Below the pieces are notes generated by a model, which saw only the letters and a list, made by a program, of their open reading frames with translations, ran no database searches and was not told the DNA's origin. A program made the position numbers and the translations under genes. Positions 22,409 to 23,095 of a DNA stretch of 23,859 nucleotides are shown piece after piece. The DNA is taken from IMG/VR virus record IMGVR_UViG_2690316225_000008; one strand, 5' to 3'. Source of the stretch: a virus (taxonomy: Duplodnaviria; Heunggongvirae; Uroviricota; Caudoviricetes). The first letter of the stretch is position 1. Each line of letters begins with the position of its first letter.

Positions 22409-22525
22409 GGGGATTTATCGATTTCTAATCCCTTGATATGTTAGGTATATAATCCAACACTCATGGTCGCTCTCATAAACATATCCCTTGAGACGCAGCA
22501 GATTACAACAAATGAAGCCATATAA

Positions 22526-22840
22526 ATGAACAGTAAAGAAAGTTTGCGCAGAAGATTTTTACAACTAATGACAGAAAACGTTAAATCAGAGTTACTTCTT
22601 CTGATGGCAGATAATAACGAAGCAACAAGCAGCATTCTTGCAGACCCTTACGGTAAGATCTCACATAAAACGCTGGATATTATTACCACAACATTAACAC
22701 CGCTGATGCTTCAACGGCTGAAACATAATATCAACGCATGGGTTAATGAAGAATTAAGTCCTCCCTGCTTATGGGATTCTCGTTACGCATGTCAGCAAAA
22801 AATGCGAATTTTCAACTTACTATCACCAAAGCTCAGGTAG
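22526..22840 (+). CDS. Hypothetical protein (104 aa) in AT-rich insert between S and R, opposite strand to the late operon
   Basis: ORF MNSKESLRRRFLQLMTENVKSELLLLMADNNEATSSILADPYGKISHKTLDIITTTL…; A/T-rich third positions; perfect TATAAT at 22449-22454 upstream; no family recognised. Confidence 0.35.
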   Translation: MNSKESLRRRFLQLMTENVKSELLLLMADNNEATSSILADPYGKISHKTLDIITTTLTPLMLQRLKHNINAWVNEELSPPCLWDSRYACQQKMRIFNLLSPKLR

Positions 22841-23095
22841 CCATAAAATCCTGCCCTTCATGGCATACAGGATTTCAATGGAATCACAATGACCAACTCT
22901 TGCACAGCTGTATCCCTGACTCCCCGACAACTCAGATTTTCAGTATCTGCTGCTATCTAAAGAGAAAGCGCACAAATGCAAGGGTCTTTCATCACGTCCT
23001 GTTATTGATTGCCTGTGACCTTTTCTTACCTCATGGAACGTTTTTTCAGTTAGAAATATTCATTTTACAACCAGTTCGTATTGTTTATTCATCGA

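Follow-up and report, generated by a model that had tools for sequence, protein, structure and literature searches.

A small antisense gene between the holin and endolysin genes of a lambdoid Escherichia coli prophage, and its usual pairing with a YdfR-family late gene

Bor and Lom of phage lambda are envelope proteins with known lysogen phenotypes, and their genes represent the lambdoid morons that carry their own promoter in or beside the late operon. T4 RIII and P1 LydB are cytoplasmic antiholins. The slot between the holin gene S and the endolysin gene R is usually occupied, in Stx-type phages and in Qin, by a gene of the YdfR/DUF1327 family (PF07041). Here we describe a small gene that lies in this slot in an E. 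coli prophage, on the strand opposite to the lysis genes, and compare it with these systems and with toxin-antitoxin or effector-immunity pairs. In the following, the window is the whole stretch of DNA that was analysed (23,859 nucleotides), and the partner is the late gene of the YdfR family to which the small gene is usually tied in related phages. Individual loci are cited by L numbers where they have to be told apart.

The small gene resembles the lambda morons bor and lom in its lower G+C content compared with the flanks, in its patchy presence at one site and in its recombination, and it shares with bor the location on the strand opposite to the late genes. Unlike the envelope proteins Bor and Lom, the small protein is predicted to be cytoplasmic, and the small gene is usually tied to a specific neighbour on the late strand, whereas bor is not. 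The slot is the same as that of YdfR/DUF1327, of which the window keeps a 10-codon stub; however, the 104-aa protein has no PF07041 match and is encoded on the other strand. Toxin-antitoxin and effector-immunity pairs are similar in their tight two-gene linkage and in having a small all-helical member that persists as an orphan. They differ in that the genes are convergent here and not co-transcribed as an operon, and in that the larger gene here persists without the smaller one (L017-L023 and a prophage of strain EC4115). Like T4 RIII and P1 LydB, the small protein is soluble and its gene lies in or near a lysis cassette, but the protein has no sequence similarity or specific fold similarity to them, the small gene is antisense, and the holin families beside it vary.

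The window corresponds to the late region of a lambdoid E. coli prophage that resembles Stx phages, and its late genes lie on the minus strand. The late genes recognised with Pfam were those for terminase Nu1/A, a lambda-type portal protein, an S49 protease, major capsid protein E, tape-measure proteins and tail L. The lysis cassette at the right end of the window is of the phage-21 type (Table 1), and an N-terminal hydrophobic, SAR-like stretch of R can be read from the translation. The flanks are approximately 93% identical to H-19B and Stx1 phages, the alignment breaks across the S-R spacer, and NC_011356 matches the window. No Rfam family was found, either in the window as a whole or in positions 22300-23859.

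Table 1. Positions in the window of the lysis genes and of the features in the S-R spacer
Feature	Position	Strand	Remarks
Rz, with Rz1 embedded	21072-21596	-	Lysis cassette
R, SAR-type endolysin, 177 aa	21875-22408	-	PF00959, E=7.6e-24; downstream flank of the spacer
Conserved 5' leader of R	22409-22445	-	Without Shine-Dalgarno; with palindrome GGGATT..AATCCC; comparison with relatives
Candidate -10 box TATAAT	22448-22453	+	72 nt upstream of the ATG; no good -35 box
Inverted repeat TCTCA-N13-TGAGA	22471-22493	+	Presumed 5' UTR; GTCTCA..TGAGAC in relatives
Five-codon mini-ORF, MKPYK*	22512-22529	+	Stop overlaps the main ATG (ATGA)
Intact small gene, 104 aa, phrog_1853 family	22526-22840	+	ATG start, open frame; HMM, dN/dS, AlphaFold
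Hairpin directly after the stop codon	22846-22875		-12.8 kcal/mol, z = -2.15
C-domain pseudogene remnant of the YdfR-family partner (phrog_1085 type)	22891-23019	-	Two in-frame stops; HMM
ydfR/DUF1327 stub, MNKQYELVVK then stop (10 codons)	23060-23092	-	Compare YdfR of YYZ-2008, MKKKYELVVKG
S, phage-21-type (class II) holin, 68 aa	23096-23302	-	PF04971, E=1.9e-32; upstream flank of the spacer

Several other features of the window were observed. The tail region (positions 1-6200) is rearranged: there are four tail-L segments (1-800 is 100% identical to 2005-2800, and the others are at 86-93%), two tape-measure genes are present, and in one ORF of 948 aa tail L is fused to a tape-measure protein. 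This rearrangement could reflect duplication, inter-prophage recombination or an assembly problem. In the AT-rich region between Rz and Nu1, a gene for a PerC-family transcriptional activator was found (20292-20606, minus strand; PF06069, E=3.8e-44), and a PerC-family gene also adjoins the lysis cassette in EC4115. Just upstream of S, there is a strong intrinsic terminator (23358-23384, minus strand) with an 11-bp stem and a T-run, which probably represents the late-operon tR'. A hairpin resembling it (CGCCAGYGG..CACTGGCG, then Ts) is located upstream of the small gene, and on the same strand as the small gene, in phage 86, L011 and L024. Immediately before the S start (23303-23311, minus strand), ATA is present where relatives have an in-frame ATG (MYQM.. 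or MKSM..), a feature common to H-19B and YYZ-2008; as this leaves the 68-aa start alone, no ATG would be available for the longer, antiholin-type product of S21-like genes. Between S and the end of the sialate-esterase gene (about 23757), two plus-strand units (23481-23600 and 23649-23748) were noticed, each with a TTGACA box, approximately 80 nt and, at 23558-23600 in the first and 23708-23748 in the second, a GC hairpin with a T-run.

The earlier note, which was made from the sequence of the window alone, had described S and R as separated by 687 bp of AT-rich sequence, and this was confirmed by the coordinates (gap, 22409-23095; S ends at 23096 and R starts at 22408) and by the G+C content (0.39 in the gap, with 0.35-0.42 over the ORF, versus 0.52-0.56 in S and R). 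The gap had also been set against lambda and phage 21, in which the holin and endolysin genes are adjacent or overlapping; however, when the S-R interval was compared across eight phages, a gene between S and R turned out to be the rule in this phage group, with ydfR filling a 399-bp gap in H-19B and YYZ-2008. The alignments indicate that the spacer of the window is a composite of the R leader (about 22409-22445), an ORF cassette of approximately 400 bp, and approximately 250 bp of a decayed late gene of the YdfR family. Thus, the suggestion of a moron dropped into the lysis cassette stands as far as a true opposite-strand gene with lower G+C content, patchy presence and independent recombination is concerned, but what was taken as one 687-bp segment consists of three parts. 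The insert proved variable among related prophages, as the earlier note had asked: the small gene is present in the window, phage 86, L004, L008 and L012, and absent at the same site in H-19B, YYZ-2008, L017-L023 and the second EC4115 prophage. Hence the alternative named in that note, a segment of known function shared uniformly by related phages, does not apply. No match to the insert was obtained when the phage collection was searched with megablast, and the allele of the window is known only from bacterial chromosomes and from prophage contigs of IMG/VR.

At the other end of the spacer, R indeed has no Shine-Dalgarno sequence and has a small palindrome at its start, but neither feature is related to the insert. 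Approximately 50 nt upstream of R, including the palindrome and the missing Shine-Dalgarno sequence, are conserved in YYZ-2008 and H-19B, both of which are without the ORF, and the leader (..TAACATATCCAGGGATTTGAAATCGATAAATCCTGATAAATATCC-ATG) precedes R in these two phages and at all other loci. Since it is conserved in phages without the ORF, the leader belongs to R and not to the insert. The palindrome (22410-22432) does not form an unusually stable fold (z = -0.66); because of this value and its presence in insert-free phages, it was rejected as a boundary of the insert or as an insert-linked regulator of R. We also observed that window-type alleles are without 10 bp (TGATAAATAT; 22409-22412) that were found in every other R leader examined, which places the ATG of R directly after the palindrome.

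The plus-strand ORF of 104 aa was confirmed to be open, ATG-started and genuinely protein-coding. In pairwise comparisons among seven lineages with the Nei-Gojobori method, dN/dS in the frame of the ORF was 0.14-0.39 (median, 0.23), and the values for the other five frames were approximately 1 in four and 0.35 in one antisense frame. The homologues are 104-107 aa long, with identities from 78% down to 21%. This strong coding conservation indicates that the ORF is a true gene under purifying selection. Two additional ORFs were considered and rejected as genes (22441-22635 on the minus strand and 22771-23133 on the plus strand); neither had a family match, and the dN/dS signal was confined to the 104-aa frame.

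The product had been said to match nothing recognisable, and this had to be revised, because the protein is already catalogued. It belongs to phrog_1853 (E=3.5e-47, 161 bits), residues 1-102 being matched to positions 57-158 of a profile that is longer (159 positions), and it corresponds to RefSeq WP_000138558.1; PGAP annotates the identical sequence in O157:H7 genomes. The family is given as of unknown function in PHROGs v4, and the RefSeq entry is a 'hypothetical protein'. The RefSeq version is a 90-aa call with the start at 22568; since the first 14 residues are conserved in the homologues of 104-107 aa, the 104-aa start is favoured. No match was obtained for the 104-aa protein in Pfam (E<=0.1), NCBIfam or the PDB sequences, no toxin-antitoxin or defence model was matched, and no defence family of PADLOC-DB 2.0 was detected at E<=1 for either the small protein or the partner. 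A literature search on WP_000138558 found nothing.

An AlphaFold2 model of the small protein built from a 12-sequence alignment (pLDDT, 88; pTM, 0.78) has five helices. The protein is 12 kDa in size and has no transmembrane segment (maximum 19-residue Kyte-Doolittle average, 0.66), and it is predicted to be a soluble, five-helix, cytoplasmic protein. Fold searches gave generic matches to helical bundles, with no specific match and no known anti-defence fold.

With regard to expression signals, a perfect TATAAT upstream of the ORF had been placed at 22449-22454. The hexamer is present one base away from this position (22448-22453) and is the sole copy on either strand of the 23.9-kb window; 4.6 copies are expected, so that its occurrence is not above chance. 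Most close relatives retain it: the window type, L004, L008 and L014 have either TATAAT or TACAAT, but it is absent in L012/L080 and phage 86. The consensus promoter scan made no call at this position because there is no acceptable -35 box. Thus, the hexamer is partly conserved, and an own promoter is suggested rather than called. The inverted repeat in the presumed 5' UTR is conserved in L004, L014 and L070-73. Equivalents of the mini-ORF (MRFYK*, MRCYE* and MRPYK*) are found in L008, L004 and L070-74, and an in-frame fusion is found in P0005; because the small gene is without a Shine-Dalgarno sequence, the mini-ORF may support translational coupling. The hairpin that had been noted downstream of the ORF does fold (5 of 200 shuffled sequences folded equally well), but it is not followed by a U-run and is therefore not a canonical intrinsic terminator; its role as a terminator is suggestive, and it would be a weak one at best. 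It is not conserved in relatives, where the 3' end of the partner occupies that position.

The part of the spacer next to S consists of remnants of the partner. Positions 23057-23094 have 87-92% DNA identity to the 5' end of annotated DUF1327/YdfR genes. With an HMM made from four partner proteins, the C-domain remnant was detected with 13.3 bits in one minus-strand frame, the other frames being reported as negative, and a weak collinear tblastn match and the DNA alignment agree with the HMM. In diverged relatives, the intact partner (phrog_1085) has 185-268 aa, is encoded on the strand of the lysis genes and lies tail-to-tail with the small gene. Its N-terminus is variable (DUF1327 or a coiled coil), and its C-domain is conserved (RIGRCMGYLQ.AAEIE ... 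NPPFK..PG..YLKG); the long proteins of the YdfR family are DUF1327 fused to this C-domain. The predicted structure of the partner had a pLDDT of 46 and was not used, and a search of the partner against the PDB sequences gave nothing meaningful. [quoted passage not shown]

The pairing was surveyed in 79 IMG/VR loci (48 of the window type and 31 diverged). The partner is decayed in all 48 window-type loci (48/48); in the diverged loci, the C-domain of the partner is convergent and close by in 27 of 31, and none is found in the remaining 4. The tail-to-tail pair also occurs in phage 86, Stx2_12E129, L004 and L008, and the 3' ends of the two genes abut or overlap (by 21-33 nt in L008 and L024). 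The arrangement is kept beside holins of other families, namely PF05106 (L024/L025) and PF16080 (L026), and in L086 the module is located upstream of yet another type of holin gene and not between S and R. In total, the pairing spans holins of at least three unrelated Pfam families and a fourth, unclassified type. As judged from these sequences, the two genes move as one unit, and the lysis cassettes in which they do so are of different types. Two other features of L086 may be mentioned: the DUF1327-like part and the partner C-domain, which gp05 of phage 86 combines in one protein, are encoded by separate ORFs (118 aa and 158 aa), and a hicA/hicB-like pair (recognised from the translations) lies on the opposite strand at 5100-5737, between Q and the lysis genes.

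Each of the two genes is also found without the other. The partner alone is present between S and R in L017-L023 and in the second prophage of O157:H7 EC4115, and the small gene alone in L012/L013 and L080/81/84; at least three small-gene lineages have lost the partner. In L014, the small gene is retained in a prophage remnant that is decayed and has no lysis genes in its neighbourhood. Among 5426 complete E. coli genomes, the small gene was found in 674 (approximately 12%), and DNA of the partner in at least 1129. In EC4115, an orphan small gene is located in one prophage and a partner-only slot (S-[185 aa]-R) in another, Stx2-like prophage, the 185-aa protein being WP_001015158.1. A side observation concerns L012/L013, in which a gene for an Enterotoxin_a/Scabin-like ADP-ribosyltransferase (3913-4704) lies upstream of S; Stx phages carry stx upstream of S, at the matching position.

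The lineage of the window made it possible to follow the small gene after the death of its partner. Three window-type variants (L070, L071 and L073) share the stop of the stub and the two stops of the remnant with the window; thus, the partner died before these variants diverged. Within this lineage, substitutions amount to 2.2-3.5% in the ORF versus 5.9-7.8% in the adjacent remnant (Fisher p, 0.02-0.03), and the ORF has a dN/dS of 0.10-0.14, with a dS (0.08-0.11) that is near the divergence of the remnant. The slower change and the low dN/dS after partner death argue that the orphan gene is still functional, and the idea that the small gene needs a partner in cis was rejected, because selection persists within the partner-dead lineage. 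Among the window-type variants, the cassette is 96-98% identical, versus 74-93% for S and 86-93% for R; since the cassette is more identical than the flanking genes, mosaic exchange by recombination independent of the flanks is indicated.

On the basis of these comparisons, we tentatively propose that the small protein may be a self-promoted antagonist of the partner that operates in the prophage state and that, in the present prophage, would act in trans. The small gene would be transcribed from its own promoter, with the hexamer at 22448-22453 as the candidate -10 box, against the late operon; the opposite strand and the private -10 box suggest that expression is separate from that of the lysis genes and falls in the prophage or early state. 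Since a small helical protein without an enzymatic signature most plausibly binds another protein, the product would work by protein binding, as an immunity-like antagonist of the partner C-domain, which is the sole candidate target to which comparative genomics points. In intact modules, the small protein would neutralise partner that is made by leaky late transcription; upon induction, Q-driven late transcription would run head-on across the small gene, so that its expression would be switched off and the partner freed. In the orphan state, the small protein would act in trans on the partners of co-resident or superinfecting lambdoid phages. Action in trans is suggested for the present prophage by EC4115, where the orphan and an unpaired partner reside in separate prophages (the latter in the Stx2-like one), and by the presence of partner DNA in at least 1129 of 5426 genomes. 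Against the proposal, the candidate promoter has no -35 box and is missing in some lineages, the partner often occurs without the small gene and is thus presumably not toxic enough to need an antidote in cis, and the continued selection on small genes that have lost the partner would be explained equally well by a function independent of it. The further generalisation, that the small gene and the C-domain of the YdfR family form an undescribed two-component module, in which a late effector is combined with a lysogen-expressed, antisense-encoded antagonist and the orphans interfere between prophages at the stage of lysis, is in our opinion doubtful.

About equally likely as such an antagonist is a moron that is independent of the partner, which would serve the lysogen or the phage alone (for example by excluding superinfecting phages, by anti-defence or by modulating a host protein) and would have entered beside a YdfR-family gene once and been inherited together with that gene; we consider this, too, as a possibility of limited weight. 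It is consistent with a small gene that remains intact and under purifying selection after the loss of the partner, that stands alone at several loci (L012/L013, L080/81/84) and survives in the L014 remnant, that has the opposite strand, low G+C content and mosaic behaviour of lambda bor, and that is as widespread as the E. coli survey indicates. The adjacency to the partner, however, is kept down to 21-34% identity, beside three or four types of holin and at two positions in the cassette, and such an adjacency would be hard to maintain in mosaic phage genomes without functional coupling; moreover, neither a PADLOC defence match nor a known anti-defence fold was found. On the other hand, the conserved adjacency could reflect the shared descent of a mobile cassette and not an interaction.

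It is unlikely that the small protein is a regulator of lysis timing that targets the holin, the SAR endolysin or the spanins in the manner of an antiholin or of T4 RIII. Every intact context is within or directly beside a lysis cassette, and the protein is small, cytoplasmic and helical, like T4 RIII, but, being encoded on the opposite strand, it would not share the expression of the lysis genes, the variation of the neighbouring holin families argues against a specific contact with the holin, and there is neither a membrane segment nor similarity to lysis regulators in Pfam or PHROGs. Even less probable, in our estimate, is that the main product is an antisense RNA, which would damp leaky or late expression of the lysis genes by pairing with, or by collision into, the ydfR-like gene and S, the protein being secondary. 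The 3' overlap with the partner (L008 and L024), the lack of an efficient terminator between the ORF and S in the window, and a geometry that guarantees head-on collision with late transcription are all in line with such an RNA; the frame-specific selection and the confident fold, however, indicate that the protein is selected, and an antisense effect would be additional at most. Finally, a chance ORF in AT-rich junk, for which the missing Shine-Dalgarno sequence, the weak promoter and the absence of a Pfam family might speak, is scarcely credible and is refuted by the comparative data (dN/dS of 0.1-0.3, length kept to 21% identity, pLDDT of 88, and evolution two to three times slower than that of the adjacent pseudogene).

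Taken as a whole, the small gene is an accessory gene within a late operon, already catalogued although uncharacterised, and not a new kind of system; its less ordinary feature is the conserved antisense pairing with a late gene of the YdfR family inside lysis cassettes. The gene lies in the lysis cassette of prophages that are present in about one-eighth of the sequenced E. coli strains, including O157:H7 and other Shiga-toxin producers, in which the timing of lysis governs the release of toxin and phage. What was annotated as a 'hypothetical protein' is now a defined candidate, that is, a selected gene with a usual YdfR-family pairing, of which an orphan copy and an unpaired partner are present in one genome, and it may take part in cross-talk between prophages or in the control of late functions. 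If the gene is only a generic moron, the value of the present analysis would lie mainly in annotation (the 104-aa start, the ydfR pseudogene and the R leader). If the small gene and the partner do form an antagonist module, the orphan would dampen the late programme of phages that are co-resident or incoming, the Stx phages in O157:H7 among them.
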